A stretch of 64,000 nt of DNA from a virus. A program made the translations under genes and the position numbers. The notes below the pieces were generated by a model. It was given only the letters and a program-made list of their open reading frames with translations. It made no database searches and had not been told where the DNA came from. Positions 6,817 to 64,000 of the stretch are shown here, piece by piece; the first letter of the stretch is position 1, and the number at the start of each line of letters is the position of its first letter. Location of the stretch: positions 18,838-82,837 of IMG/VR virus record IMGVR_UViG_3300040801_005525; one strand, written 5' to 3'.

Positions 6817-6891
6817 GTCATCCTCGTCGAAGTATGCGGTGCGTGTCTGTGAGTAAGGAAGAGAGAGAAGAAGATCCCCCCCTCCCCTCTG

Positions 6892-7284
6892 CTAGACCCC
6901 TTGTGGAGCGATGTGTCCCATCCATGCGGTGTCGATGCGGTGGAAGCTCGTGCCGTTGAAGCGGTAGAACTCGCCATCCACGCGGTAGAGGACGCCCTGA
7001 CACAGCTGCGCCCTGTGCGCATCAGCGAGCTCCCACATCGTCTCGTAGGGGTTCGAGATCTTGCGGTAGAGCCCGAGCGTGAGGAGTTGCCTTGTGGGGA
7101 GCGTGAAGCCCTGGCGTGTGGCCTCTTCGAGGTCGTGCGCGAGCGCCGTGGGGGCGAGCTCCGAGTCGAGCCACCCGGAGCGGGTGTGGTGGACATGGCC
7201 CGTGGCGTCCAGGCAGTCGAGCTGAAAGCCGCGGCCCTGTGAGGCGTGAGAGAGGCAAAGCGTTCGAGTCGTGAAGGTGTGCAT
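6892..7284 (-). CDS. Hypothetical protein
   Basis: GAGGA RBS; 130 aa. Confidence 0.65.
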   Translation of the reverse strand: MHTFTTRTLCLSHASQGRGFQLDCLDATGHVHHTRSGWLDSELAPTALAHDLEEATRQGFTLPTRQLLTLGLYRKISNPYETMWELADAHRAQLCQGVLYRVDGEFYRFNGTSFHRIDTAWMGHIAPQGV

Positions 7285-7358
7285 GATGTCCTCGCAGAGC
7301 AGAAGTCAGAGGGAGGGGGGAGAGTGGCGCCCTCCCCCCGTGTAAGAGAGGGAGAGGG

Positions 7359-7724
7359 TCAATATTGGCCGTGGAGCGCCTGCCACGCTTCGGGCTCTTC
7401 CTGCTGCCTCCTCTCCTCCTCTTCGACTTCATCCACACGCTTCTGCGTGGTCACGCCCATCCCCTCACACACTTCACAGTCCACGTCGAAGTCGTAGCCG
7501 CGCCAGTCCTGACCGCTCCAACCGCCCTTGCCCTGACAGCAGGGGCAGTCGATGACCCCGAAGCGCCTGACGATCTCGGCGAGCTGGATGTCACGGAGCG
7601 TCTCGCTCCAGAGCTCCTCTGTGGCGCGATAGTAGGCGCCCTCCCAGTCTCCCTGAGCCATGTCGCTGCGAATCTCACCGATCGTCAGGGCGTCCATCTC
7701 TTCTTGTTCTTTGTAGTCTGTCAT
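7359..7724 (-). CDS. Small protein with DnaJ-type CxxCxGxG zinc finger and IGEIRS motif
   Basis: CPCCQGKGG and CEVCEGMG; AAGGAG RBS. Confidence 0.7.
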   Translation of the reverse strand: MTDYKEQEEMDALTIGEIRSDMAQGDWEGAYYRATEELWSETLRDIQLAEIVRRFGVIDCPCCQGKGGWSGQDWRGYDFDVDCEVCEGMGVTTQKRVDEVEEEERRQQEEPEAWQALHGQY

Positions 7725-7809
7725 GAGGGGCTCCTTTGGAGCAGCGGGCCACGTTTTGTCACTCCGGGCCACGGGGGGAGGGTGGAGGGCGTCATGTCCT
7801 CCTCGCTAC

Positions 7810-7850
7810 ACCACCTATTATAGTCACCCCATCGATCACGGCAAGGTGGT
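7810..7850 (-). promoter_or_regulatory. Leftward sigma70-like promoter bracketed by an inverted repeat
   Basis: Minus strand TTGCCG-16 nt-TATAAT (7844-7817), flanked by ACCACCT (7810) and AGGTGGT (7844). Confidence 0.5.
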
Positions 7851-7943
7851 TTTGTAAATATTTTTTCTTTGATTTTTATTTCTTGTCAATATATTGTAGT
7901 CGTGCTCTCTGACCACTCACCTTACTTCAGACCAGGAGACCTC

Positions 7944-9014
7944 ATGAGTTCCCGCATTAAATACGACTCCGCACAGGCCGCTTCATGGCTCGAAATGCTT
8001 CAGACCACCAAGAAGGGGGCGAGCGACCTCATCGGTGTGAGCAGGCCACGCTTTGACAAGATCCTCGAGCAGGGAGCGAGCGACACCGAAGCGCTCGCCA
8101 TGAAGTTTGTCGAACGTGAGCATCTTCAAGCCGCAAGGCTCGCTTCACAGATGTCCCCGATGACCGCAGTCAAGCTTGCCTTCGAGAACATCGAATCCAT
8201 CTATCGTAAGGAGGAAGGCACGACCGATCATGACACGGGGATCGAGCTTGGAGATGAGGGGAGGCTCGTGTTGCCTTCACCTGGGTTGGTCGTCGTGACA
8301 GGACCACCCTCGAGTGGAAAGTCTTCCCTGCTGCGCCAGCTCGTCTCGCAGAAACCCATGGCGAGCCAACTTGCTTATCTCTGTCTCGAACAACCCATGA
8401 CCGAAGCCGTCATCAAGCTCATGTGCCAGGTCGCGCGTATCCACTCGAGTCACATCAAGACAGCGCGCCTCAGCGAGAATGACTGGGCACGACTCATCAA
8501 GGCTGCTGGCGATCTCTCCGAGGCAAACGTGAGCATGATCGGTCAAACCTGGGCGCTCGATGACATCATCGAGCATGTGCACGCCTTACACGCCACACGC
8601 GGACTCGATGCCTTCGTGCTCGACGGCCTTGGTCTCGTCGAAGTGCACGATGCGCGATCACGATCCGAGGAGCTCGCACGTGTGGTACGCAAGCTCAAAA
8701 AGCTTGCCTATGAGCTTGGCATTCTCGTCGTCACCAGCGCCCATACTCAGAGCCAAACAGCGCGCCACAAGCGACCATCGCTCGCAGACATCGAGCAAGC
8801 TCCCGGTCCTCTTCACTACGCAGACACGATCCTCGCATTGCACCGTGAAGAGCTCTTTGACCCAAACTCTGAACTCAGGGGGATCGCGGAGCTCCATACG
8901 CTCAAGCATCCTGACGGGCAACTCAGGACAACGCCCCTGCGCTTCTTCCCCCAATACGGACGCTTCGAGCCGCTCAGTGAGAAGGATCGGCAAGATGCAT
9001 TCTCCTTCCTCTGA
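7944..9014 (+). CDS. Xre/Cro-like HTH fused to a degenerate DnaB C-terminal (RecA-fold) domain
   Basis: N-term KKGASDLIGVSRPRFDKI; Walker A GPPSSGKS, CLEQ, VLDG, KRPSLADI, ADTILALHRE; CAGGAG RBS. Confidence 0.85.
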   Translation: MSSRIKYDSAQAASWLEMLQTTKKGASDLIGVSRPRFDKILEQGASDTEALAMKFVEREHLQAARLASQMSPMTAVKLAFENIESIYRKEEGTTDHDTGIELGDEGRLVLPSPGLVVVTGPPSSGKSSLLRQLVSQKPMASQLAYLCLEQPMTEAVIKLMCQVARIHSSHIKTARLSENDWARLIKAAGDLSEANVSMIGQTWALDDIIEHVHALHATRGLDAFVLDGLGLVEVHDARSRSEELARVVRKLKKLAYELGILVVTSAHTQSQTARHKRPSLADIEQAPGPLHYADTILALHREELFDPNSELRGIAELHTLKHPDGQLRTTPLRFFPQYGRFEPLSEKDRQDAFSFL

Positions 9015-9217
9015 GCCGGAGCGTAAATAAATTTACAAACCGATTGAGCGGTAGTGACTTGCACCTGGTCGCGTCGAGGACAAAACGTGATGGATTTGGT
9101 GGGCGCCCCAAACGTCCCAGCTTTTCTGTGTGGTAAAACGTGGCGGGAAAGTTTCACCCGATGTGATGGCTATTCTGGATTTTCATTCGGGAGGGATTTC
9201 GAGGACTTATCGGCAAA

Positions 9218-9270
9218 GGTGAAATAATTACACCAAATGCATTGACAGGTGAAATGATTGCACCTATATT
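9218..9270 (+). promoter_or_regulatory. Sigma70 promoter with two tandem palindromic operators
   Basis: TTGACA (9242)-17 nt-TATATT (9265); operators GGTGAAATAATTACACC (9218-9234) and AGGTGAAATGATTGCACCT (9247-9265). Confidence 0.8.
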
Positions 9271-9892: not shown

Positions 9893-9927
9893 TCCCCACC
9901 TTGCCCCTCACTCTACAGGAGATCATC

Positions 9928-10359
9928 ATGACACACCGACTCTACGCCCCCACCGCTGCCGCGCTCACAGAGACCACCCACCAAGACATGCCCGACGACG
10001 CGCCAGAGGGTGCATTCCTCGCAAGCGGTGGACGCCTCGAGCTCGTCACCCCCCGCACCTTCTTCGTCCGTCAAGGCGGAGCATGGATCGAAATGGACCG
10101 AGACGCCTGGCACGAGGCGCGCCGAGCTGCGGTCTGGCAGGCTCGCGCCACGACACACACGAGCGAGTGGCTTGCCGAGTGGCGAGCACAGATGGGAGGA
10201 AGCGAAGCGCACCCCTTGACGCAAGAGCAGCTCGCCGAGATCCTCGGCGTCTCAGTGAGAGCCGTCAAGGGGTGGGAAAAGGACGGCTCACCTCAGCCCT
10301 ATCTGTGGCGCGCGCTCCGAGACTGGGAGGCGCACAGGTACGATGCGATCGAGGAGTAA
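9928..10359 (+). CDS. Xre-family HTH transcriptional regulator (C-terminal HTH)
   Basis: LTQEQLAEILGVSVRAVKGWEKDG; CAGGAG RBS. Confidence 0.85.
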   Translation: MTHRLYAPTAAALTETTHQDMPDDAPEGAFLASGGRLELVTPRTFFVRQGGAWIEMDRDAWHEARRAAVWQARATTHTSEWLAEWRAQMGGSEAHPLTQEQLAEILGVSVRAVKGWEKDGSPQPYLWRALRDWEAHRYDAIEE

Positions 10360-10502: not shown

Positions 10503-11129
10503 ATGACTCATGAGATCATCACCCCGAACGGCACCACGTGGACCTTTACCATGGATGAGGAGACCGCGCGCGCTGGCGACGTGGATCACCATATCCTCAT
10601 CGACCCCGAAGCGCACACGGCCACCTATTCGTGGATCTCGAGGGGCTCCACAGCATCGAGCGTGTGGCATCGGCTTGAGCGATCGATCGCCGTGCCCGAA
10701 GGGTCAACCCGTGAGAGCGTCCTCGGTCTGCTCGAGGATGGCGCCTACTTCGACGCCGTGGAGGCTGCATGGCAGGGCGCGCAGTGGGATGGCTCGAATC
10801 ATCGCGGCATGTGGGACGAGGATGGCATTATGGCGCTCGCAGACTGGGAGGTGCATGGCCAGTTCGAGGTACTCTTTACCGGAGACGAGGCGCTCGACCA
10901 GCTCCTCTATGGCGCCTCCTCACGCGAACTCTTCGAGGAATGGCTCGAGCTTGGCCCCGCGAGCCACCAGAGCGACGACTTTGCCTATGACCCTGCCGAG
11001 TACGAGAAGAGCCTCTTTGCACACCTTGCGCAGCAGGATCAGGATGACTTGCGCATCGACGAAGAGGACGAGGAAGACATGGCGCTGTGGCGCGCACTCC
11101 AGAATCAGATCAATGTGCGACAATCCTGA
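10503..11129 (+). CDS. Acidic hypothetical protein
   Basis: GAGGA RBS before ATG 10503. Confidence 0.7.
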   Translation: MTHEIITPNGTTWTFTMDEETARAGDVDHHILIDPEAHTATYSWISRGSTASSVWHRLERSIAVPEGSTRESVLGLLEDGAYFDAVEAAWQGAQWDGSNHRGMWDEDGIMALADWEVHGQFEVLFTGDEALDQLLYGASSRELFEEWLELGPASHQSDDFAYDPAEYEKSLFAHLAQQDQDDLRIDEEDEEDMALWRALQNQINVRQS

Positions 11130-11153
11130 GTTTGCGCCTTGCACAAGAAACGC

Positions 11154-11190
11154 AAAGAGCCCGCGTCGTGATGACGCGGGCTCTTCTTAT
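11154..11190. terminator. Bidirectional terminator between the early block and the end of the late operon
   Basis: AAGAGCCCGCGTC-GTGAT-GACGCGGGCTCTT followed by CTTATT. Confidence 0.8.
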
Positions 11191-11295
11191 TCGCTGCAAC
11201 CCGGAACCGCCCCGGGACTCGTTTTCTCCGGCTCTCACGGAGCAAAATAGCTCTTCTCATTGAGGCTTATTGCAGCACAGTTTCATCCTATCGAG

Positions 11296-11751
11296 TCACC
11301 AGCGCCACACGGCAAAGCTCACCGCGGTCGTCACGGCCACGCTCACCCCACACGGCACCCGCGCATCGAGTTCGCCCTGCGCGGCAGGCACGCACAGCGC
11401 GGTCGCGGCGCCAAAGGACGCAGCAAGAAGCACGATGCCCCAAGTCGGACGGCGTGAGAGACTGGCGATCGTGTCGTCCTTCTGAGCTTCACGTGCCGCG
11501 CAGTCCTGGGCGCGCACTGTGCAGGCGTCTTTGTCTCGCTCGCACTTGTGCTTGTCAGCGCGGCACATGTGCACCTCGCGCGCGTCCTTGACGGCTTGTC
11601 GGTAGAAGTTCTTCGTGACGATCTTGGACTCGGGAGGGGGTGACTCACTCATCAACGGCGAGGAGCTCTGCGCGAAGCTCGGCCCACTCTTGATTGAGAG
11701 GATGATCAGGATCGCTAATGTCAGGAGGATCCGGCACTGTATCGATCTCAT
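11296..11751 (-). CDS. Secreted Cys-rich coiled-coil protein with hydrophobic C-terminus; spanin-like candidate
   Basis: Signal-peptide-like N-terminus; last gene of the lysis cassette; overlaps the upstream gene in another frame. Confidence 0.5.
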   Translation of the reverse strand: MRSIQCRILLTLAILIILSIKSGPSFAQSSSPLMSESPPPESKIVTKNFYRQAVKDAREVHMCRADKHKCERDKDACTVRAQDCAAREAQKDDTIASLSRRPTWGIVLLAASFGAATALCVPAAQGELDARVPCGVSVAVTTAVSFAVWRW

Positions 11752-12043
11752 GATGGTCCTCGGCGGTCATGATGGTCGGGTCGAGCACGATCGGAGGGAG
11801 TTCGATCGGAGGGAACTCGCCCTGCTCGGGACGTGGTGCTGTGGGGGGTGGGGAGGGGGTCTCTTTTCTGTCTTTGAGGAGCGTGAGCACGAACAGCGCG
11901 CCAAGTGGCGGGAGCAGGCAGGCCAAGAAGAGCTTCGCCGCCCACACACGCCTCGTCGTGGCCCACACCGTGGCGCTCATCACCACCAACACGCCCCACA
12001 GTACGAGCAGGATGAGGTGTGCCGTCGTCAGCTGGTCGATCAT
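11645..12043 (-). CDS. Membrane protein, 2 TM plus Pro-rich tail (lysis cassette)
   Basis: Two hydrophobic helices; AGGAGG RBS. Confidence 0.65.
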   Translation of the reverse strand: MIDQLTTAHLILLVLWGVLVVMSATVWATTRRVWAAKLFLACLLPPLGALFVLTLLKDRKETPSPPPTAPRPEQGEFPPIELPPIVLDPTIMTAEDHHEIDTVPDPPDISDPDHPLNQEWAELRAELLAVDE

Positions 12044-12705
12044 GGCGCCCTCCTGTAGCGCACGACCGCCCACAGCTGGGCCTCGCCCGTCAGGGTGAGT
12101 GGGTGCGCGTCCACGAGGATCTTGACGCCGTTGACCATGAGCTCGGCGCCGCGCACGACCTCGCCCCGCAAGGCGCGCGCGAGCGGCCAGGACCTCGGCG
12201 GGAGCTCGTGCCCCTCCCAGTCATAGACGGGGCCGATCTGCTCGGCGAGCTCGCGCAGGGTGTCCGCGTCGAGATCCCGGTCCGTGAGCATCAGGATGTG
12301 CAGCGCGCCGCCGTTGCTGATCACGTGGGTCAAGTCGTGCGCCCACACATCCACGCCCTCATCGAAGGTCTTCAAGACCTTCTCGAAGAGCTCCCTGAGC
12401 CTGGCGCGCTCGCGGCGCTCGACCGTCAAGTCCACCTCGAGCGCGTCGATCCTGTACTTGAAGCGCAGCACGGTGCGCTCGCAGTCCTCGTCCTTCTGCT
12501 CGAGCTCTGTGAGGTGCAGCTCGCGCAGCTCACGCACCAGGCGCTCGAGCTCCTCGATGCGGTGCTGCTTGATCCTCACCTGATCTTGCAGGTCCACGGC
12601 GAGATCCATGGCGCTCGTCTCCTCGCCAAGCCCTGGCTGGCTTGCCCTGAGCGCCGCGGCAAAGTCCTCTCCCCCCAGAATCGTCTTGGTGACGTCGTCG
12701 CTCAT
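12040..12705 (-). CDS. Coiled-coil plus PAS-like domain protein
   Basis: C-term EGHELPPRSWPLARALRGEVVRGAELMV..ILVDAHPL..G..WAVV. Confidence 0.65.
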   Translation of the reverse strand: MSDDVTKTILGGEDFAAALRASQPGLGEETSAMDLAVDLQDQVRIKQHRIEELERLVRELRELHLTELEQKDEDCERTVLRFKYRIDALEVDLTVERRERARLRELFEKVLKTFDEGVDVWAHDLTHVISNGGALHILMLTDRDLDADTLRELAEQIGPVYDWEGHELPPRSWPLARALRGEVVRGAELMVNGVKILVDAHPLTLTGEAQLWAVVRYRRAP

Positions 12706-15843: not shown

Positions 15844-17263
15844 CTTCTTTGCCTCCGCAGGTCCAGTTCATGTCATCGCAGTAGCGCTCCCAGCGCGTCA
15901 GCTCGGTCACCGTCATCTCGGCGCGCTTGACCCCAAAGCCCCTGAGGTCTCCCTCGAAGAAGAAGCCAAGCGAGGTGCCCCCCGAAATCCTCCTGCACCC
16001 GAGGGTGAAGGTGGTCATGGCCGTCTCGACAGAGCTCGAGCCGCTCTGTGTGACGATGGGCGTCACCTCATCAGGGGAGACCCATGCCGCGATGTCGACG
16101 CTGCGCGCGCCCGACCCCGTGGGGCCCTCGACCACCTCGATGACCGTCCAGTCGTCTGCCGGATCCACGCCAAAGAAGGTGTCGACTGTGGCGCCTGCGC
16201 GCCGAATGAAGGGGTAATGGTTGTTGAAGCGTGCATAGGCCGACACCCATGTGCCGCTGTCATCGTTGCCCGCGCTCCACATGTACCTGTAGCTCGAGGA
16301 GCCTGCGGTCATGTCGCTGTGCGCCATGGCGACCGTGTAGGTCTCCCCGGGGTTAAACCACGAGGCGATCGCGTCGATCTCGATCTTGTCGTCCACGCCA
16401 TCAGCCTCTGCGGCACCAGGCACGCCCCCTGCGTCCGCGCGATAGGTGTAGCGCGCGCTGCCCGTGCTCGTGCCGTCGATCCCGAGGTTTCGCCCGAGCC
16501 AGGAGGTGATCCCATCCCCGTCGACATAGCCCTGGTCCTCGAGATCCTGGTAGTCCCAGTACTCATCAAACAGCAGCTCGGGTGCCTGGCGCACGCTCGC
16601 CGTGGGGGCGCTCGTGGCGTCGTCGCTGCCTGCGCCATTTTCGGCAGTGACTGTACACGTCAGCTGCGCGCCCACGTCCTCGTACTGCACGACATAGGTC
16701 GAGAGCGTGGCGCCAGACAGGGCCACGCCATCACGCTTCCACTGGTAGGCATACGTGATGGGGGTGGTGCCCGTGACGCTCCCGTCGCTCACCGAGAGCG
16801 TCTGACCTTCCTTGGCCTCCCCCGAGATGACGGGGTCCACGATGAAGGCGGGCGCCTGCGCGCCCACGACCACATCCACGGGGTCACTCGTACCCGTCAC
16901 ATCGGGATCGATGCCGTTCGAGTACACCTCATTGAGGCGCACTTGCTTGCCCGCCTGGCCGCTCGAGGTCGAGAGCGTCAAGCTGTCGGTGCCATTGAGC
17001 TCGACCCACAGCCCCGAATCGAGCCGAAGCTCCCAGTAGCGCCGCACGAGGCTTGGCGCAGGTTGCCCCGCATAGGTGCCTCCTGTTCCAGTGACATCCT
17101 CCCCGGCATTGACCTCGTTCGGCGCGCTCGGGGGAGTGACGACGCTCGGCACCACGGTTTGTGCCCCGGGCACATAGTCCGTGAGCAGGACGTGGCGCGC
17201 GATGCGTGGCCCCATCGTGGATTGCGCGCTCGCCGCCCTGAATGTGCTCTGCTTGATGGTCAC
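15830..17263 (-). CDS. Tail or virion adhesin: tandem Ig-like repeats plus a LamG/concanavalin-like domain
   Basis: PVISGEAKEGQTLSVSDGSVTGTTPITYAYQWKRDG..LTCTVTAENGAG; C-term ADGVDD..FTLGCRR..FFEGDL. Confidence 0.7.
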   Translation of the reverse strand: MTIKQSTFRAASAQSTMGPRIARHVLLTDYVPGAQTVVPSVVTPPSAPNEVNAGEDVTGTGGTYAGQPAPSLVRRYWELRLDSGLWVELNGTDSLTLSTSSGQAGKQVRLNEVYSNGIDPDVTGTSDPVDVVVGAQAPAFIVDPVISGEAKEGQTLSVSDGSVTGTTPITYAYQWKRDGVALSGATLSTYVVQYEDVGAQLTCTVTAENGAGSDDATSAPTASVRQAPELLFDEYWDYQDLEDQGYVDGDGITSWLGRNLGIDGTSTGSARYTYRADAGGVPGAAEADGVDDKIEIDAIASWFNPGETYTVAMAHSDMTAGSSSYRYMWSAGNDDSGTWVSAYARFNNHYPFIRRAGATVDTFFGVDPADDWTVIEVVEGPTGSGARSVDIAAWVSPDEVTPIVTQSGSSSVETAMTTFTLGCRRISGGTSLGFFFEGDLRGFGVKRAEMTVTELTRWERYCDDMNWTCGGKEDDPT

Positions 17264-17267
17264 AGCC

Positions 17268-17651
17268 TTACCCCGCCAGCTCGATGATGGTCACAGGCTC
17301 TTCCTCGCTCGAGTAGACCTCGGCGGCGGAGAGCCTCACAGTGCACTGCACGAAGGCGGGCTCGGCATCGAGCGCCTGCGTCTGTGTGGGGGAGAGCGTC
17401 GCGCGCACATAGGGCCCCGTGCTCTGCGCCCCGTCCGTGTCGCGCAGACTGAAGATGTCGGCTTCAGGCGAGCCATTGGCCGAGTCGAACGAGACGAGCG
17501 CCTCGCCGCGCTCATCGACCACCACGAGCTTGAATGTGATGCCCGCACCTCCGGTCAACATGTCCTCACCAAAGGCATCCTTCGGGCGCCACTCGCGCGC
17601 CCAGGTGTTCCCCTTCTTGATGGTGTCTTCGGGGGCATAATAGCAGCTCAT
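17268..17651 (-). CDS. Small tail/baseplate beta-sandwich protein (BppU-N-like)
   Basis: IKKGNTW..VRATLSPTQTQAL pattern; position; AAGGAG RBS. Confidence 0.5.
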   Translation of the reverse strand: MSCYYAPEDTIKKGNTWAREWRPKDAFGEDMLTGGAGITFKLVVVDERGEALVSFDSANGSPEADIFSLRDTDGAQSTGPYVRATLSPTQTQALDAEPAFVQCTVRLSAAEVYSSEEEPVTIIELAG

Positions 17652-45245: not shown

Positions 45246-47666
45246 TTAGCGCTTGCGCTGCTGCTTTCTCGCCTGTCTGGCTTTTCTCTTCTTCTCCCGA
45301 CGCTTCCTCTTCCTGTTCGAGCCATGGAGCGCGCAGTCAACTCTGGCGATCTGCTCACGGTGTGCGCCGAGCGTCTCGAGGCCCTTCGCCACGCTCGAAA
45401 GCGCCGCAGAGAACGCCTCGCCGATGGAGGGGATGCGCTCATCCCCTGTCCTGTCCTGGGGGATGGGTTCGACGCGCTCCATGTGATCGAGGGCAGCCAT
45501 GATGCGTCTCCCGGTATCGGTGATGGCCGGGGTCATGAGCGCACGCTGGGTCATGATCCTGTGTGGGCCTGGCTGACGGAGCTTGGCGAACGCGTTCCCC
45601 AGCGCAGTGACCTGGTCGTTTGTGCGTGTGGAGGTGTCAGCGAGCACCTGACTCATCCGGGCTGCGTCTTCCTCGGAGATGGGGTTGGCGAGATGGCGAA
45701 GTCGCGCTATGGGGTCATCACTCCCGGGCGGAGTCTGGATGCCCACACTCACAAAGGAGGGGCCAGCAACACGCCCCTGGATGTACCTGACCCCCTCCTC
45801 GTTGAGCTTCACCTCGGCGCTCATGCCATGCTCATCCTGGCGCACACTCGTCACCTCACCAAGCGGTTCTCCCTGCCCGTTGAGCTGCCTGACGACTCGA
45901 GGATGCTCTCGAGAGCCATCCAGATGAAGGATGTCCACCTCATCACCGGGCTCGACATGGTGGGCACGTCCTGCGACGCCACGAAGCTCGAAGGTGCCTT
46001 GTTCGGGGTCGAGTCGGCAGAAGAACACCTGCCCCTGTGCGCTCACGAACTCCAGCTCGTCTTTGGCAAGCTCTTGCGAGCTTCGTATATCGGCGCCGAG
46101 CATGGCCCCGTGGACATCGAGCGTCGTCCCCTCACCCACGCGCACCTCGGTGATGCGTGCCTCGGCAAGTCGCCTCGCCCTGGTTAGCGCGAGCGCCGCG
46201 AGTGAGGAAGTGTCATGGGCGTGCGTGGCCTCCAGATAGGTGCCTTCGACCTCATCCTCGTCGAAGACATACACGCCAGGCAGAGGACGGTCCGCTCTTG
46301 TCAGCTGCTCGACATGCATGTCCGGACCCGAAGCAAAATCAAGGTCACAGGTCAGGGGCTCGTCGCCATCGATCACGTCGCGCAAAGCATGTGCATAGGC
46401 TCGTGCCGATGCCTCGCGTTGCTCTGAAGACGAGGGCAACTTTGGCCCAACCTCATCCCACACGAGCCGGTGATGCATATCGAGAGGCGTGGTCCGCAGA
46501 TCCGTTTTATCCTGAACATAAAGCTCCAGGAGGAGGAGGCGGCGCAGCGGTGCAAGATGATCTCGACACTGTATGAACGCACGACCTGGTCTTGTGCCGA
46601 ACAGGCGGATCAGGTGTGCATCGCTCACGCGCTCTCGCACCGTATCGATGAGCAGGTCGGTCAGGTCGCGCAGATGTCCATTGCGACGAAACAGGCGCAC
46701 ACCAAGCGCCTCGAACTCACGAGTGAGAGGAGAACTCGGGGTGATGCCGAGGAACCTCTTATGGGCATCTCGCCACACACCTCTGAGCGAGCGCCCGTGA
46801 CGTCCCATGTCAGCAAGCGCGCCCATCAACACCCCTGCACCCTCCGCGCTGTCTGCAAGAGGCGCAACGCCCACATCGCTGCGCTCAAAGACATCGACCA
46901 TCTCCTCGGTTGAGATGTTCGCCCCCCTCGAGATGATGTCGATGACGCGGCGCTCATGCGCAAGGGATCTGGCAGGGCTCACGTGCTCTCTTACATCGAG
47001 CTCTTGGGCACGCACTGGAATTCCGCTGTGCAGAAGCGCGGCGTGCAAATGTCCCGCCATGGCATCGTCAGGGCTGTGCCAGGTCGAACCCATGGCACGC
47101 ACGGTGAGCATACGTCCCTCGTCCCATCCATCGAGTTCATTCATGATGGCCTTGATGCGTGTCACCACAGCGAGCGGCACATAGCCATGGTGAGTCACCT
47201 CACCTGCGCCCTCCATGAACGCGAGGCCATCGCGTGTCTCGACGATGTCCACGGGCAGCCGGCCCGACCTGGTCATCGAGGCGCCCTGAAGCTCACACGC
47301 ATCCCAGACATCGAGCACCTCACGACGACCACGGGGGAGGTTCGAACCCGTGCTTTCGGCCTCGGCGCGTGCGCTCCGCACCTCTCCGGCGAGCTGCGCG
47401 ATCACCCCATCGAGGCTCGCGCAGGCACACACCTGACCATCCTGACCTGTGACCTGCCATGCCCCTTCCGACACGGACACCGTGCAGCTGCGCCGGGCAG
47501 GCAGGGCGAGGCGCGCCCACATCTCACCTGTGTCGGCGAGGTAGGGGTCATCCTTCCTGCGCGCGAGCCGGTGCGCTTGCCACGAGACGAGCAGCGCGGG
47601 AAGCCTCGTGAGCAGGTCATCGAACAGGAGCGCGTCACGCTCATGATGTGTGGGGTCACAGGTCAA
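45246..47666 (-). CDS. 806-aa mosaic protein with degenerate tape-measure and prohead-protease fragments
   Basis: Segments align by eye with this phage's TMP and protease (see findings); basic C-terminal tail. Confidence 0.7.
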   Translation of the reverse strand: MTCDPTHHERDALLFDDLLTRLPALLVSWQAHRLARRKDDPYLADTGEMWARLALPARRSCTVSVSEGAWQVTGQDGQVCACASLDGVIAQLAGEVRSARAEAESTGSNLPRGRREVLDVWDACELQGASMTRSGRLPVDIVETRDGLAFMEGAGEVTHHGYVPLAVVTRIKAIMNELDGWDEGRMLTVRAMGSTWHSPDDAMAGHLHAALLHSGIPVRAQELDVREHVSPARSLAHERRVIDIISRGANISTEEMVDVFERSDVGVAPLADSAEGAGVLMGALADMGRHGRSLRGVWRDAHKRFLGITPSSPLTREFEALGVRLFRRNGHLRDLTDLLIDTVRERVSDAHLIRLFGTRPGRAFIQCRDHLAPLRRLLLLELYVQDKTDLRTTPLDMHHRLVWDEVGPKLPSSSEQREASARAYAHALRDVIDGDEPLTCDLDFASGPDMHVEQLTRADRPLPGVYVFDEDEVEGTYLEATHAHDTSSLAALALTRARRLAEARITEVRVGEGTTLDVHGAMLGADIRSSQELAKDELEFVSAQGQVFFCRLDPEQGTFELRGVAGRAHHVEPGDEVDILHLDGSREHPRVVRQLNGQGEPLGEVTSVRQDEHGMSAEVKLNEEGVRYIQGRVAGPSFVSVGIQTPPGSDDPIARLRHLANPISEEDAARMSQVLADTSTRTNDQVTALGNAFAKLRQPGPHRIMTQRALMTPAITDTGRRIMAALDHMERVEPIPQDRTGDERIPSIGEAFSAALSSVAKGLETLGAHREQIARVDCALHGSNRKRKRREKKRKARQARKQQRKR

Positions 47667-57801: not shown

Positions 57802-57905
57802 GGCTCTCTTCTCCTTTGCATGCTCCCGCCATGCACGGCGTGTGCAGAGGGGGGAGGGGGGTAGTTTTCTTCAGGATGCTCAAGCACGCTGGCGCGCAAG
57901 CGCTC

Positions 57906-59441
57906 TCACATCCAATCGTTGTCATCCTGCACCACGTTGAGGTGCAGCACGTGTTTTCCTTGTTCATTTTGCTGAACACGGTCAGCGCGAAAGTCTGAGC
58001 CATAGCGCCCATCGAGGTCTGCGATCTTGCCGGTCTTGCCATCGAAGAAGAGCTTCGTGGTGCCGATGGCGCCTTCTCGATACTTGCGGGTGATGATCTC
58101 CATCACGCCCACGTCCTCGGTGTTCGGGTCATACACCTCATCACGGTAGATGAAGCTGATGATGTCGCCATCCTGCTCGAGCTGACCGGCTGCTTTCAGG
58201 TCAGACATCCAGGGGCGCTTGTCGGTGCGATCCTCACACTTCCTGTTGGGCTGGGCGAGCGCCGTGATGTTGCACTCGAACTCGCCAGCGAGCTCTTTCA
58301 AGGTGCGTGAGGTGTTCGCCACGAGGTCCACATCAGAGGCATTCGGCATGGCCCTGTTGCGCACGATCTGGGCGTAGTCGATGAACACGACATCGAGCCC
58401 TCCTGGCATCTCGGCCACCTTCCGGATCTGACGTCGAATCCTTGAGATGTCACACCCCGGAGCATAGTCGATGGCGACCTGAGCCTCGATGAGCTTGCCT
58501 GTCTCGTGCACGAACTTCGTCCACTGTTGCCTGCTCACGCTCTTGTTTTTGAGCGCGCTCCTCGAGAGTCCCGAACGTGAGTAGAGGATGCGCTGATACC
58601 ACTGCGACGGCTTCATCTCGAGCGAGAAGATGAGCACGCGCTTGCCCTGATCGAGCGCGAGGTTTGCCGCAAGCGTACCCGCGAGCGCGCTCTTTCCCAT
58701 CGAAGGTCTCCCACCAAGGTAGATGAGCTCGGTGGGCACGAACATGCCGTCATCAAAGAACTCATCGAGCGTCTTGATGCCTGTCGGCAAGCCTCGCATG
58801 ATGTGGGTCTGCTCACCCTTGTAGGTCGCTTCAGTGTCCTCGAACACGATCTTTGCGCCCTGCTTCCCCCAGCACAACTCCTCCTTGCCGTCATGCTCGG
58901 CGAGCAGCTCGACGAGCTTCCCCACGAGTTCCACAAAGCCCGGGTAGTCGTTCAAGTTGTCTGCGGCCTTCTGGATCAGACGCCTCGCCGCTTTGATGAA
59001 TTGCCAGAGCTTGGCTTTGCGTGAGATGATCGTGGCGTAGTAGCTGACATTCGTGGCGCTGGGAATCTCCGAGGAGAGGCGCGCCAGATAGTTTGGCCCA
59101 CCCACCGCATCAGAGAGCCCGTCAGCCTTGAGGTGATCGTGGACCGTGATGACGTCGATGGCTTCCTGCTTGTGGTAGAGTTCGAGCATCGCCCGGTAGA
59201 TGTGGCGATGACTCTCACGGTAGAACATCGTGGGGTCGAGCTCGCTCTCACAATACTCCATGACCGTATTATCAAGGAAAATCGCGCCGAGCGCGCTGCG
59301 CTCGGCCTCCTCGTTGTGGGGAGGGATGATGAGCTCGCCATCCCCGAGCGCCTGCTCGAGCGAGGCGATTTTCTTCTTGGCCTGCTCGAGGTCTTTCAAG
59401 ACGTGCTCGAGCTTGGGCTGGGGTGTCGCAGTCTGGTTCAT
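57906..59441 (-). CDS. dnaB: Replicative DNA helicase DnaB (intact)
   Basis: PPHNEEAERSALGA N-domain; GRPSMGKS, FSLEM, IDYAQ, AQPNR, RPWMSDL, EQDGD, KYREG. Confidence 0.95.
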   Translation of the reverse strand: MNQTATPQPKLEHVLKDLEQAKKKIASLEQALGDGELIIPPHNEEAERSALGAIFLDNTVMEYCESELDPTMFYRESHRHIYRAMLELYHKQEAIDVITVHDHLKADGLSDAVGGPNYLARLSSEIPSATNVSYYATIISRKAKLWQFIKAARRLIQKAADNLNDYPGFVELVGKLVELLAEHDGKEELCWGKQGAKIVFEDTEATYKGEQTHIMRGLPTGIKTLDEFFDDGMFVPTELIYLGGRPSMGKSALAGTLAANLALDQGKRVLIFSLEMKPSQWYQRILYSRSGLSRSALKNKSVSRQQWTKFVHETGKLIEAQVAIDYAPGCDISRIRRQIRKVAEMPGGLDVVFIDYAQIVRNRAMPNASDVDLVANTSRTLKELAGEFECNITALAQPNRKCEDRTDKRPWMSDLKAAGQLEQDGDIISFIYRDEVYDPNTEDVGVMEIITRKYREGAIGTTKLFFDGKTGKIADLDGRYGSDFRADRVQQNEQGKHVLHLNVVQDDNDWM

Positions 59442-60247
59442 GACTTCCCTCCTGGCACGAGTTCGAGGCGCCATGCACGGGCGAGCCTGATGTCTTGATC
59501 TGGCTTTGCTGCCATCTCTCCACGAATACGGTCGTGATACTGCCCATCAATGGCGAAGTGTCCAGCCTGCTTCAGGTCACCAAAGGACGCGTTCGACACG
59601 ATCATCACGCTCACCCCGAGGTCATAGAGTTCGGCGAGCAGCCCCCGCCAGCGCGACTTGGCCCACTCGGGCTGCTCGCCCCGCCCCATCTCGTCGATGC
59701 ACACCAGGTGGTGGCGCTTGATGTCCTGTTCGAACGCGTCGGCATCCTTTGACCCGAGGACCCTCATGGCCTGAGGTTCGGTGATGTACATCATCCTCGG
59801 CGCGCCGAGGTGGGGCACCTCATGAGCGCTGTTTCGTTTGATGTGAGCTCTGGCAATGAGCTCGATGCACTTGAGCATCGCCATGGTCTTGCCTGTGCCG
59901 TAGTCGCCCTGGATCCATGTGATGCGTGGCGGGTCCTCGCTGCCAAAAGCCTTGGCGTACGCGTAGGCCATGTGCTCAGGCTTGAACGGAATGCCACGCA
60001 TCTTGGCGAGCAGTTTCGCAGGCGCTTTGCTCTGTGCGAGCACGTGGGCAAGGCTTGCGTTGCAGCGCTCGACGCGCTTTGCGGCAAGAAAACCCGTCTC
60101 GCATGGCTCACATGACCCGAACACATACCATCCTCCTGTCAGCGGATCAGGCATCGGCTCGATGTACTCACGCTCACACACAGGACAGAGCTGTGGTGCA
60201 GGCTTGGGCTGGAGTTTGGGGAGGATGTCTTGCTTGTCTTCAATCAC
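59438..60247 (-). CDS. DnaC/IstB-like AAA+ helicase loader
   Basis: Zn-binding CxxC pairs; GDYGTGKT; CIDEMG; IVSN; DRI. Confidence 0.85.
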   Translation of the reverse strand: MIEDKQDILPKLQPKPAPQLCPVCEREYIEPMPDPLTGGWYVFGSCEPCETGFLAAKRVERCNASLAHVLAQSKAPAKLLAKMRGIPFKPEHMAYAYAKAFGSEDPPRITWIQGDYGTGKTMAMLKCIELIARAHIKRNSAHEVPHLGAPRMMYITEPQAMRVLGSKDADAFEQDIKRHHLVCIDEMGRGEQPEWAKSRWRGLLAELYDLGVSVMIVSNASFGDLKQAGHFAIDGQYHDRIRGEMAAKPDQDIRLARAWRLELVPGGKS

Positions 60248-61560
60248 TGCACACCCCCTTTGAGCGCTTCGATGCGCGCGAGCACAGCCTCCCGAGCCTC
60301 GAGCCAACGTGCATTGATGGCATATGGCTCAAGCCAATCCCACGCCTCATCATTGTCCTTGAAGCCTGCTTCACCAAGCAATTCATGGACCTCATACCGC
60401 AGGTGCGAGCCGCCCTCGATGGCCTCGATGGTGACGTCTGCGGCATCGAGGCAGCGCTTGGGCGCGGATGATGGTGTGACGCTCACCTTGTTCCAGCTCG
60501 CCGGGTTCGCCAGCCGCTTCTTGGCGTAGTTGAACAAATGACGGGTGGCACGCTCCCGACAGGTCGCGATCTGCTCCTCGACCTGCGCGAAGAACGCCTC
60601 CTCCCCGAGCAGCGCCACGATGGATGCGATGCCTTGCTCGAACTCCTCGAGGTCTTTGCATGTCTGGCTCCTCAGCACACACCCGTGCCAGGCGAGCAGC
60701 GCCAACGCGTAGCGTGCAGGGTGTCCAATCGCTTCGATGCGCGCTCTGCACCCAGGCTTGTTCGGTACGATCCAATCAAAGTCCTCTGGGCGCACACTTT
60801 GCTCATCCGGCGCCGCGGCACCTTTCACCGACTCATCCAGGCTCGACGGTGCTGTCGCCTGATACGCGGCCTGGGGGACCACTTCATCGACGTCGATGGT
60901 CCTTCGGTCTTCACGAAGGGTCAGCTCGATGACCTCTGCCTTCATGTCCTCGTGATGAAGCTCGAAAGAAGAATCAGAAGAAAATCCATCCCCACCCCCA
61001 TCAGCACACTCGTCGGGTTTTGCACTCCCCCTCGATTCTGTTGTGGGGGGTAGGGGGGGATTATTGATCTGTTTTACTGATCTGTTTATTGGATCGGTTA
61101 TGTCCGAAACTGAGTTTCGCACTCTCCGAAGCTCAGTTTCAGTCCTCTCCGAAACTGAGCTTCGCACTTCGGAAGGATCAGAGGTGCGAAACTGAGTTTC
61201 GCACTCTCCGAAGCTCAGTTTCGCACCCTCCGAAACTAAGCTTCGGACATGTTCGGGTATGGTGAGTGTGTATTGGTAGCGTTCGCCTGGCATACGTGCC
61301 ACGCGAATCCACCCCTCTTCGATGAGGCGTTTTCTGACTTTGGTGAGGTAGCGGGGGTTGCAGCGTACGGCCTTGGCGAGCTGCTTGTCGGAGGGGTAAC
61401 ATTTTCCTCCGGTCTTCCAGTCTGCCCAAAAATTTATCAGACAGTAGAGCACCGTTGTATCGGTGGTGCTCGATGGCCCGTGGTCACGCACGGCCATCAA
61501 ATAATTGTCTCTGAACATCGTCGTTCCTTCGAGTTTTTCGTTTCTCTTCATGCCCAGCAT
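60244..61560 (-). CDS. Replication initiator (N-terminal winged HTH, lambda O-like layout)
   Basis: CYPSDKQLAKAVRCN..LIEEGWI; internal iterons; upstream of loader and helicase. Confidence 0.85.
   Translation of the reverse strand: MLGMKRNEKLEGTTMFRDNYLMAVRDHGPSSTTDTTVLYCLINFWADWKTGGKCYPSDKQLAKAVRCNPRYLTKVRKRLIEEGWIRVARMPGERYQYTLTIPEHVRSLVSEGAKLSFGECETQFRTSDPSEVRSSVSERTETELRRVRNSVSDITDPINRSVKQINNPPLPPTTESRGSAKPDECADGGGDGFSSDSSFELHHEDMKAEVIELTLREDRRTIDVDEVVPQAAYQATAPSSLDESVKGAAAPDEQSVRPEDFDWIVPNKPGCRARIEAIGHPARYALALLAWHGCVLRSQTCKDLEEFEQGIASIVALLGEEAFFAQVEEQIATCRERATRHLFNYAKKRLANPASWNKVSVTPSSAPKRCLDAADVTIEAIEGGSHLRYEVHELLGEAGFKDNDEAWDWLEPYAINARWLEAREAVLARIEALKGGVQ
61103..61249. repeat. Replication origin iterons
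   Basis: Six copies of quasi-palindromic CGAA(A/G)CTNAG(T/C)TTC(G) at about 22-bp spacing inside the initiator gene; AT-rich tract at 61060-61100. Confidence 0.85.
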
Positions 61561-61658
61561 CTCCTCCACCCGAGTCAACAGGTGGTTTCTACAGGAGGTT
61601 GCTGCGCGCTTCTGGTCTTACCTTAAAGTCAAGTTGCGATTTCTGCAACTTGGAAAGT

Positions 61659-62388: not shown

Positions 62389-63474
62389 TCATAGCAGGCC
62401 CTCCATGCTCTTGATGAGCGCGGACAGGCTCTTTGCTTCGACAGGGGTCTCGGCAGGGAGCGGCTTGATGGACCACAACACCCAGAGCTTGCCTTCAGCC
62501 TGGCAGTACTCGCGCGCGGGCACCTTCTGTTGCTCGAAGAGCGCGACCTTGCTCCCGAGCTCCGCGGGGGAGGGGAGCGGCGTGATGACACACTGCCCCT
62601 TCAGGGCAGCCTGTACGGCCTTTCGCCAGGCCGAGTCCGAGGGCTCCCTGAACGCGTTGACGGGCGGGAGAGGAGAGGTCGTCTCGTGCACCTCCTCCTC
62701 CTGTGCCTGTGTGCCAGGTTCGGAGCTCACCGGCGCGTCGAGCGGCACGAGCTGCTCGCCCTGATCGGCGCGCTTGAACACGCCAGTGGGCTGTGCATTG
62801 ACCTCGACCAAAGTGTCAGGCGTCTGAGCATTATGCTCAGATTCCACAGAGGCCGATTTCCTGTTCGACTCTCTGATCCCTGAGACATCGCGTGCCGTCC
62901 CATCCGCGCTCATGACCTTGTCGCGCTCGGGGATGATGTCCTGGTCGACCATCTCGCGGCGCACCTTGCTCACGAAGGTCTGAGACACGCGGCACTTCTG
63001 CGCGATCATGCGGTCAGACCACTTCCTCCACTCCTTGTCGCCAAGCGCCTTCTCCACCACACGGCGCTTATCAGAGCGCGTGCGACGAAGGCCGTGCTTG
63101 TCGTTGACCTGGAAGCTGTAGAGCAGCGCGTCGCGCAGCGTGCCTCGGTGACGCTTGACCTGGAAGTGCGTGATGCCCTTCTTCTTGGCGGCCTTGTAGC
63201 GGTGCCACCCATCCACGAGCCAGATCGTGTCACCCTTCTCGAACACCACGAGCGAGGGCCACTCGTCGCCAGACTGGTCGACGACGATCCCGTCGCTCCT
63301 GACCTTCATGTTCTGGGCGTACTCCTTGACGGCGTTGTCATCCTCGCTGACGCGCGGCTGGAGCTGGCGCTTCAGGGTCACCTCCTCGAGCGCGACCCTG
63401 TCTCGTTTGTCGCGCCCTGCCATCTGACCCACCACCCCGAGGCCCTTGTCACTCTTCTTGCGTGTTGCACCCAT
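62389..63474 (-). CDS. parB: ParB/Srx-domain protein with HTH
   Basis: LQPR..LVDGWHRYKAA..NDKHGLRRTRSDKRR..WSDRMIAQKCRVSQTFVSKVR; downstream of parA. Confidence 0.8.
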   Translation of the reverse strand: MGATRKKSDKGLGVVGQMAGRDKRDRVALEEVTLKRQLQPRVSEDDNAVKEYAQNMKVRSDGIVVDQSGDEWPSLVVFEKGDTIWLVDGWHRYKAAKKKGITHFQVKRHRGTLRDALLYSFQVNDKHGLRRTRSDKRRVVEKALGDKEWRKWSDRMIAQKCRVSQTFVSKVRREMVDQDIIPERDKVMSADGTARDVSGIRESNRKSASVESEHNAQTPDTLVEVNAQPTGVFKRADQGEQLVPLDAPVSSEPGTQAQEEEVHETTSPLPPVNAFREPSDSAWRKAVQAALKGQCVITPLPSPAELGSKVALFEQQKVPAREYCQAEGKLWVLWSIKPLPAETPVEAKSLSALIKSMEGLL

Positions 63475-63481
63475 AATGTCT

Positions 63482-64000
63482 TTAAATCCTTTGCGAAAAC
63501 CATTCGCTGACTGTGCGGTAATCCTGCGCGCCCTTGCTGTCCGGGGCATACTGGTAGATCGGTGTGGCATAGCCCATCGACTCGGCGAACACAATCGAGT
63601 GGTTGATTGGCGGGCTCGTCTGGCCCTCGTACTCGGTGTTCAGGTGTTCGACGACCTGGCTGGCGTGGTTCGTGCGCCCGTGGAGCATCGTCGGCACGAA
63701 CCCGAGCGTGAAGAGGTCGGGGTTCTCATGCTCCCTGACCTCCTCGATGGTCTGAAGCAAGTCATACATGCCGAGCAGCGCGATCGACATGCACTGCACC
63801 GGGATGATCACGGCGTCACTTGCAATCAACACGTTCTGCGTGATCACGCCGAGCTCGGGCGGGGAGTCGATGATGATGTGGTCATACTGCGTGGTGAAGC
63901 CTCGCAGAGTGTCACGCAGGCGTGTGAGCGCCACAGGCCTCTGCGCGAGCTCCGTGGAGACGCGCGCGAGCTGCCTGCCGCCTTCGATCAGGTCCACGCC
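63482..64000 (-). CDS. parA: ParA/Soj-family ATPase, 5'-truncated by the window
   Basis: YDHIIIDSPPELG..IASDAVIIPVQC..FAES..PIYQYAPDSKGAQDY. Confidence 0.92.
   Translation of the reverse strand, partial: GVDLIEGGRQLARVSTELAQRPVALTRLRDTLRGFTTQYDHIIIDSPPELGVITQNVLIASDAVIIPVQCMSIALLGMYDLLQTIEEVREHENPDLFTLGFVPTMLHGRTNHASQVVEHLNTEYEGQTSPPINHSIVFAESMGYATPIYQYAPDSKGAQDYRTVSEWFSQRI

Follow-up and report, generated by a model that had tools for sequence, protein, structure and literature searches.

We describe a phage gene whose product, P0001, combines a DnaB-type RecA-fold domain (DnaB_C) that has lost its arginine finger with a probable helix-turn-helix (HTH) in place of the primase-binding domain of replicative helicases. 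The gene lies in a stretch of 64,000 nucleotides (the window), which covers bases 18838–82837 of the 82,837-bp IMG/VR virus record IMGVR_UViG_3300040801_005525; positions below are those of the window unless the record is named. P0001 belongs to a family of three proteins, all of which are full-length, have lost the arginine finger and conserve the P-loop, linker helix and HTH. This pattern supports the proposal of a preliminary description, made from the sequence alone, that P0001 is a non-helicase derivative exapted from DnaB. Judged by its motifs, the protein is almost certainly not a helicase. We tentatively favour a role as a nucleotide-binding, self-assembling, DNA-bound regulator at an AT-rich promoter island.

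DnaB-type architecture without an arginine finger

The P0001 gene is contained in a plus-strand open reading frame (ORF) at 7869–9014 in the ORF list. We took the ATG at 7944 as the true start because the sequence AGGAGA is located 5 nt upstream and both full-length homologs, P0002 and P0025, start at the equivalent residue; the extra residues gained from an alternative TTG start at 7869 would come from the AT-rich promoter tract. The Pfam domain DnaB_C (PF03796) was detected in P0001 with a score of 111.5 bits against a cut-off of 27, and the DnaB N-terminal, primase-binding domain (PF00772) was found by Pfam in none of P0001, P0002 and P0025. The AlphaFold2 (AF2) model of P0001, with an overall predicted local distance difference test (pLDDT) score of 86, contains a three-helix HTH-like head and a linker helix, and its top Foldseek matches are DnaB (E~1e-22). 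The linker helix retains the canonical K-x-x-F-x-x-x-E pattern and aligns with the DnaB linker region in TIGR00665 and in DnaB from the PDB. The NCBIfam DnaB models align with P0001 from the linker on (residues ~65–344); TIGR00665 reaches 126 bits against a cut-off of 385, and the remaining models likewise score far under their cut-offs.

We read the motifs of P0001 against 60 DnaB_C proteins (alignment A2) and the solved Geobacillus and Thermus DnaB, using Geobacillus (Bst) numbering. Several positions have been retained: K126 and S127 of Walker A align with Bst K216 and T217, the catalytic Glu of motif H1a (LEQ) is present as E149 (Bst E241), and the Walker B Asp as D227 (Bst D320), within a segment changed from DYLQL to DGLGL. 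Other positions have been altered. The Arg of the canonical GRP is replaced by Pro in P0001, P0002 and P0025; the H3 gamma-phosphate sensor, SQL(N/S)R, reads SAHTQS, with Bst Q362 changed to H267; and in the H4 loop, which binds single-stranded DNA (ssDNA), Bst R381 and G384 have become E284 and P287. The arginine finger of the K-x-R-x-G motif is an Arg in 96% of 56 comparison DnaB_C sequences, and also in the sister proteins described below and in the phage's own DnaB. The motif reads KHPDG in P0001 and P0002 and KRDMG in P0025, so that the finger residue is P, P and D, respectively. The K and R of K-x-R act as a "piston" and as the arginine finger on the ATP site of the adjacent subunit, and in RadA, a DnaB-type helicase, mutating the K or R of the motif reduces ATPase and helicase activity (PMC5512693). 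Because the finger has been lost, P0001 would be unable to run the inter-subunit cycle of ATP hydrolysis of a hexameric helicase. Every motif reading of the preliminary description, including the retained GPPSSGKS, LEQ and Walker B Asp and the altered DGLG, AHTQS, DIEQAP and KHP, was borne out by comparison with 58 other DnaB_C sequences and with the Geobacillus numbering.

P0001 also contains a segment homologous to the "hexamerisation pocket" of DnaB. In DnaB and T7 gp4, this pocket takes in the linker helix of the neighbouring subunit, and the two together are the hexamerisation elements (PMC1950529). On the strength of its sequence, we classify P0001 as a protein of the DnaB_C fold that falls outside the replicative DnaB helicases: it is without the N-terminal domain, the arginine finger, H3 and H4, and its scores are below the family cut-offs. 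The PADLOC defence models gave no system match for P0001, with similarity at the P-loop level only (mad8, E=2e-5 over 40 residues).

The N-terminus of P0001 is probably an HTH. In the AF2 model, helices were predicted at residues 9–19, 23–30 and 34–42 (pLDDT 60–72), followed by a long helix at 45–67. The ESM-Atlas model of residues 1–70 has structural neighbours in HTH_3/HTH_31 clusters with template-modelling scores of 0.7–0.83, and hhalign placed the family segment LIGVSRPRFDKILEQG in register with HTH_3 segments, verified by Pfam, in two other proteins encoded by the phage (E=0.003 and 0.2). P0002 gave a weak HTH_8 match (E=0.077). The claim that an HTH replaces the DnaB N-terminal domain is backed by the absence of PF00772, the predicted helices, the Atlas neighbours and hhalign; direct matches in Pfam, PHROG and PDB sequences, considered below, were not obtained. 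No stand-alone homologs of residues 1–70 were found among shorter proteins.

A three-member family and its ancestry

We searched for relatives of P0001 by phmmer over 1.84 billion cluster representatives and by a word-indexed search over 5.8 billion clusters formed at 90% identity, which represent about 15 billion proteins. Across the two libraries, the length and architecture of P0001 recurred in just two proteins: P0002 (357 aa, 46% identity to P0001), on a 3.7-kb Logan contig, and P0025, which has 360 aa and 35% identity and comes from an ENA contig of 2.4 kb. The family thus consists of three singleton clusters. The preliminary description had considered that a protein with an HTH and DnaB_C but no DnaB N-terminal domain might be a decaying duplicate if it had no conserved homologs; two such homologs exist. 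No further members were found in the viral contig collection, among metagenome contigs or among genome contigs, the last of which yielded only a distant Lachnospiraceae DnaB_C, and tblastn of INPHARED and PLSDB returned canonical DnaBs only, at ≤31% identity. Two candidates were rejected: a metagenome contig match proved to be a PilT-type ATPase fitting a short pattern only, and a tblastn hit that apparently covered 99% of the query was an ordinary DnaB of 454 aa.

Conservation within the family is concentrated in a few elements. The recognition-helix segment GVSRPRFDK (residues 31–39) is identical at 9/9 positions in all three proteins, and 17 of the 25 residues from 29 to 53 are invariant, compared with about 26% over the RecA domain. 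Also invariant are GPPxxGKSSL, D227, the linker residues K77, F80 and E84, and the pocket residues E178, W181, A182, L184, I185, K186, L191, E193 and A194. P0002 retains NR and RDSG but has a Lys at the position of the catalytic Glu, and P0025 retains the catalytic Glu and a KDAG loop. P0001 is the most eroded of the three, with the lowest DnaB_C score. Since the loss of the arginine finger is common to all members, we consider it to be old.

As the preliminary description had reported, the phage encodes an intact DnaB separately; its gene is on the minus strand (57906–59474). We placed the family relative to this protein and to other DnaB_C sequences in a quick maximum-likelihood tree of the linker plus C-terminal domain (CTD), with support from the Shimodaira–Hasegawa-like approximate likelihood ratio test (SH-aLRT). 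P0001 and P0002 grouped together (SH-aLRT 97) and were then joined by P0025 (88), all on long branches. The sister group of the family (99) was formed by P0026 and P0027, two proteins of 273–282 aa that consist of DnaB_C only and have intact motifs. Distant relatives of these two are common on IMG/VR contigs, at 26–37% identity. The nearest ESM-Atlas feature clusters (0.93; DnaB-N-containing ones excluded) are likewise DnaB_C-only and 57–100% viral. The identity between P0001 and the CTD of the phage DnaB is 26%. Because of this low identity and the separate clade, P0001 did not arise by recent duplication of the phage dnaB, nor is it demonstrably derived from a host gene. The earlier characterisation of its DnaB domain as host-like did not hold: the quick tree groups it with the short DnaB_C-only proteins, and the Atlas clusters closest to it are mostly or wholly viral.

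A related claim, that the segment RLSEND...SEA is nearer to cellular DnaB than to the phage copy, is correct to a modest degree, with 30% identity to the phage DnaB and a median of 39% to 55 DnaB_C sequences. This difference arises mainly because the pocket of the phage DnaB is itself unusually divergent, with a median identity to the 55 DnaB_C sequences of 18%, compared with 35% for its whole CTD. The pocket segment of P0001 has a median identity of 30% (maximum 41%) to generic DnaB_C and 18% to the phage's own DnaB.

Genomic setting and possible functions

An intergenic region of 219 bp separates the P0001 gene from a divergent leftward operon starting at 7724, which includes genes for a 121-aa CxxCxGxG protein of the DnaJ-like zinc finger type (7359–7724) and a DUF4942 protein. 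Within this region lie the genome's most AT-rich tract, three sigma70-like sites on the minus strand, short AT-rich near-repeats, two copies of the direct repeat CGGGCCACG and a unique 10-bp palindrome, CAATATATTG, at 7887–7896, which is a candidate binding site. All five AT-rich islands of the genome coincide with promoter regions. The inverted-repeat-flanked promoter of the preliminary description probably corresponds to a 7-bp pair bracketing a minus-strand promoter-like site, and a pair this short could be due to chance. Of the four copies of the 8-mer AAAACGTG/CACGTTTT in 82.8 kb, three are in the intergenic regions flanking the P0001 gene and the fourth is at 2591. The k-mers that the intergenic region has in common with other parts of the genome were mostly at chance level. 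Downstream of P0001, a strong promoter-like sequence (TTGACA-17-TATATT, 9242–9270) opens the next unit, a rightward series of three small genes, one of which encodes an HTH_3 protein. Other sequence features around the gene include a second inverted pair, TTTGTAAAT (7851) and ATTTACAAA (9031), a 14-bp palindrome, GTAAAT-AA-ATTTAC, 3′ of the stop codon (9026–9039), and a 13-bp perfect inverted repeat, CACGGGGGGAGGG (7330–7342 and 7770–7782), that brackets the CxxCxGxG gene.

The record is given as linear and 82% complete, but it is really a closed circle, because a ParA (AAA_31) gene is split across both ends, with profile positions 82–175 at window 63713–63994 and 2–70 at record 16–225. Beside ParA are a ParB-like gene (62389–63594), an O-like initiator gene (60244–61578) and dnaB. 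The O-like gene carries an iteron array (22 bp × 6.8, 61103–61245, consensus TCCGAAACTCAGTTTCGCACTC) and probably contains a lambda-type origin; a repeat of 13 bp × 2 is located nearby at 61061–61091. No tyrosine integrase, S24 repressor (PF00717) or DnaC/IstB loader was detected in the genome. From the circle, parAB and the lack of an integrase, the genome looks like that of a phage-plasmid. About 50 kb separates the replication module from the P0001 gene, whose surroundings are lower in GC and belong to an early or accessory region. The genome encodes two other Xre-type (HTH_3) proteins: one of 152 aa at 9901–10359 (+), two genes downstream of the P0001 gene, and one of 82 aa at record 1475–1723 (−), just upstream of parA and next to another AT-rich island (record 1906–1979).

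In the role that we tentatively favour, P0001 would be a four-part pseudo-helicase in which a long helix connects an Xre-like HTH to the linker helix and the DnaB-type RecA-fold domain. With its P-loop and Walker B Asp kept, it may still bind nucleotide. Assembly in the style of DnaB, with the linker helix of one subunit entering the pocket of its neighbour, would yield an oligomer presenting several HTH heads, and this oligomer could regulate the divergent early promoter island, including the P0001 gene itself, in a phage-plasmid without an S24-type CI repressor. Consistent with such a regulator are the divergent position over the AT-rich tract, the gene's own ribosome-binding site and terminator-like site, the flanking by three of the four AAAACGTG copies, the genome's lack of an S24 repressor or integrase, and the distance of about 50 kb from the replication module.

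Several observations weigh against this interpretation. Residues 1–70 gave no Pfam or PHROG match at E≤10 and no PDB sequence match, and fold searches (Foldseek, VIA) with an isolated single-sequence model of the N-terminus (pLDDT 64) returned non-significant rows only; among these weak rows, HTH proteins were frequent and the MuB N-terminal domain appeared with Z=3.9. We found no convincing operator array for P0001, and the clustering of AAAACGTG was noticed post hoc and is unexceptional by span alone, since 32 of 5,967 8-mers equal it. A recognition helix that is invariant at 35–46% identity is unusual for phage repressors and could instead mark a conserved host or protein target. The two further Xre genes qualify equally well as repressor candidates. 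Finally, contact with ssDNA may matter in the relatives, because P0002 and P0025 keep H4-like loops (RDSG and KDAG). The "repressor-like position" of the preliminary description thus stands as far as the divergent arrangement over the most AT-rich island is concerned, and is weakened by the further Xre genes and the lack of a convincing operator array.

The conserved assembly elements also suit a protein that binds DnaB. P0001 might dock onto host or phage DnaB through its linker helix and pocket and serve as a poison subunit, a decoy or a ring-cracking loader, with the HTH as a DNA tether, and its role could be to shut off host replication or exclude other phages. We regard this as possible but doubtful. 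The canonical K-x-x-F-x-x-x-E linker helix agrees with it, as does a canonical-looking pocket next to the divergent pocket of the phage DnaB, which would insulate the phage helicase. A finger-less subunit in a mixed ring would be expected from work on T7 gp4 and RadA to stop sequential hydrolysis, the genome has no detected DnaC/IstB-type loader, the invariant HTH helix suits a conserved target, and the gene is in the early, accessory, lower-GC region. A poison subunit, however, has no need of an HTH, a loader would be expected next to the O-like initiator and dnaB rather than ~50 kb away, and the canonical-looking pocket appears inherited rather than adapted, because the catalytically intact sister proteins share it. 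A more specific version, in which P0001 inserts into or caps host DnaB rings via the linker helix and pocket, the phage DnaB is immune through its divergent pocket and the HTH tethers the trapped helicase, seems unlikely to us.

The remaining alternatives are less plausible still. P0001 could initiate replication at a second replicon, such as a lytic one, with the HTH binding next to the tract 7830–7914, which would be a DNA-unwinding element, and the DnaB-like domain recruiting or organising the real helicase, by analogy with P1, which has separate plasmid and lytic replicons. The adjoining tract, where AT content over 50 bp is the highest in the genome, the phage-plasmid-like genome with parAB beside an O-like/DnaB replicon, and the intergenic near-repeats with the CGGGCCACG direct repeat would all fit, but the P0001 locus has no iteron array whereas the O-like gene has a clear one, all five AT-rich islands are at promoters, and a promoter reading suffices because the tract holds three sigma70-like sites; we consider such an initiator improbable. 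An active helicase or translocase, using a substitute basic residue or no arginine finger at all, is very improbable. The presence of Walker A, the catalytic Glu and the Walker B Asp is compatible with activity, and in P0025 an Arg directly precedes the finger site (KRDMG), while P0001 has R328 near it. The segment H322-P323-D324, however, has no basic residue in P0001 and P0002, R328 is replaced by Q and D in the other members, P0001 is also without H3 and H4, P0002 has its Lys at the catalytic Glu position, and the DnaB_C score of P0001 is 111 bits, compared with 171–180 for P0002 and P0025 and 225 for the phage DnaB. Least credible of all is a decaying, functionless duplicate or acquired fragment. 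It could account for P0001 being the most degenerate of the three members and for an extremely rare family of three singleton clusters on long branches. Against decay, the frame is intact and full-length, with ends matching those of homologs of only 35–46% identity, the ribosome-binding site is good, the family has an invariant HTH helix, P-loop and set of pocket residues, and the genes persist despite a finger loss that is shared and hence old. This old, shared loss, together with the constraint on the frame, P-loop, assembly elements and HTH, argues for exaptation rather than decay.

The coordinates of the features are listed in Table 1. In IMG/VR, relatives of the two genes flanking P0001 were not found, and a megablast search of phages with 20 kb of the window gave no match. 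A dispersed motif was recognised at 13 sites within 38–61007; it comprises an A-rich run, CCCC[TA]CCCCACCCCCC and then [TA]C[TA]GCAC, and mostly follows the local gene orientation. Examples are at 6861–6892, 11836–11869 and 57842–57872, with the shared consensus judged by eye, and a C-rich run resembling it lies on the minus strand at 7773–7789, in the intergenic region beside the P0001 gene. The 806-aa ORF at 45246–47666 (−), called a mosaic of fragments of virion proteins in another description, had no Pfam or PHROG match; the preliminary description saw it and P0001 as a possible theme of dead copies of essential proteins. The left arm of the record, outside the window, encodes a DNA methyltransferase of 585 aa (record 10622–12379, phrog_116, E=5e-51) and a thymidylate synthase that is extended at its N-terminus by ~125 aa (record 16140–17315, phrog_160, E=7e-120).

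Table 1. Positions of the P0001 gene, its predicted domains and motifs, nearby candidate sites and the intact dnaB gene in the window
Feature	Position	Strand	Basis
Copy 1 of AAAACGTG, candidate binding site of uncertain significance	7750..7757	-	sequence
7-bp inverted repeat ACCACCT/AGGTGGT around minus-strand TTGCCG-16-TATAAT	7810..7850	.	sequence
50-bp tract with the lowest GC content (16%) in the 82.8-kb genome	7830..7914	.	sequence composition
Ribosome-binding site AGGAGA, 5 nt 5′ of ATG 7944	7934..7939	+	sequence
Coding sequence, HTH-DnaB_C protein P0001, 356 aa	7944..9014	+	ORF list, translation
Predicted Xre-like HTH, residues ~9-43	7968..8072	+	AF2 helices, Atlas structural neighbours, hhalign
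DnaB linker helix, residues 72-88, canonical K77, F80, E84	8157..8207	+	AF2 pLDDT ~85-91
DnaB_C RecA-fold domain, residues 114-342	8283..8969	+	Pfam PF03796 E=5.7e-32; Foldseek
Walker A GPPSSGKS, residues 120-127, kept	8301..8324	+	alignment; K126 = Bst K216
Segment homologous to DnaB hexamerisation pocket, residues 151-194 = Taq DnaB 240-283	8394..8525	+	alignment
Degenerate H4 ssDNA-binding loop, DIEQAP for DLRESG	8787..8804	+	alignment
Lost arginine finger, KHPDG for K-x-R-x-G; P323 = Bst R420	8904..8918	+	alignment
Copies 2 and 3 of AAAACGTG, 3′ of stop codon	9082-9089 and 9135-9142	+	sequence
Weak terminator-like hairpin and T-run after P0001 gene	9101..9127	+	sequence
Intact phage DnaB, N-terminal domain and DnaB_C, all motifs	57906..59474	-	DnaB N E=3.6e-32, DnaB_C E=1.2e-66

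Comparison with known systems

In the literature, we found no description of a conserved finger-less DnaB derivative with an HTH in place of the collar, encoded beside an intact dnaB in the same phage. Should P0001 prove to be a regulator, it would show a new way in which an oligomeric transcription factor, possibly one that senses nucleotide or ssDNA, can be built. Should it bind DnaB, it would represent a new principle of anti-replication or helicase loading, and a mimic that traps DnaB rings would be a new, helicase-derived class of replication hijack, shut-off or loader. The general impact of either would be limited by the extreme rarity of the family.

Among known proteins, the replicative DnaB helicases (E. 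coli and Geobacillus DnaB, P1 Ban and SPP1 G40P) have the same linker helix and RecA-fold CTD as P0001, at 22–26% identity, and share its Walker A, catalytic Glu, Walker B Asp and hexamerisation pocket. P0001 differs from them in having an HTH instead of the primase-binding domain and in the loss of the arginine finger, H3 and H4. The short phage DnaB_C-only proteins P0026 and P0027 share with P0001 a DxxH variant of Walker B and a pocket of the WARLIKAAG type, and the viral Atlas clusters near P0001 comprise proteins of 285–328 aa named "AAA/KaiC/DnaB-like". Unlike P0001, the short proteins keep the arginine finger, NR and RDSG and have no HTH. RadA/Sms resembles P0001 in being a DnaB-like RecA-fold hexamer whose N-terminal collar has been exchanged for a small domain that binds nucleic acid or a partner; it differs in that it keeps KNRFG, is an active helicase and carries a C4 zinc finger and a Lon-like domain.

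Outside the DnaB family, the type Ia ParA proteins (P1 ParA and F SopA) and MuB of phage Mu carry an N-terminal HTH-like domain on a nucleotide-switch ATPase, and the nucleotide state gates DNA binding or repression. P0001 may be similar to these in principle, as an analogy without a claim of homology, the ATPase folds being unrelated (deviant Walker A and AAA+, respectively). The lambdoid CI/Xre repressors share with P0001 the G-V-S-R-P...E-x-G pattern of the HTH and the position at a divergent promoter. Unlike these repressors, P0001 lacks an S24 peptidase or dimerisation domain, a Pfam HTH_3 match and an identified operator array, and its recognition helix is invariant in distant homologs. 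The DnaB-family proteins DnaB, T7 gp4, RadA and Twinkle are known as motors, and the classic case of exaptation in the wider fold is KaiC.

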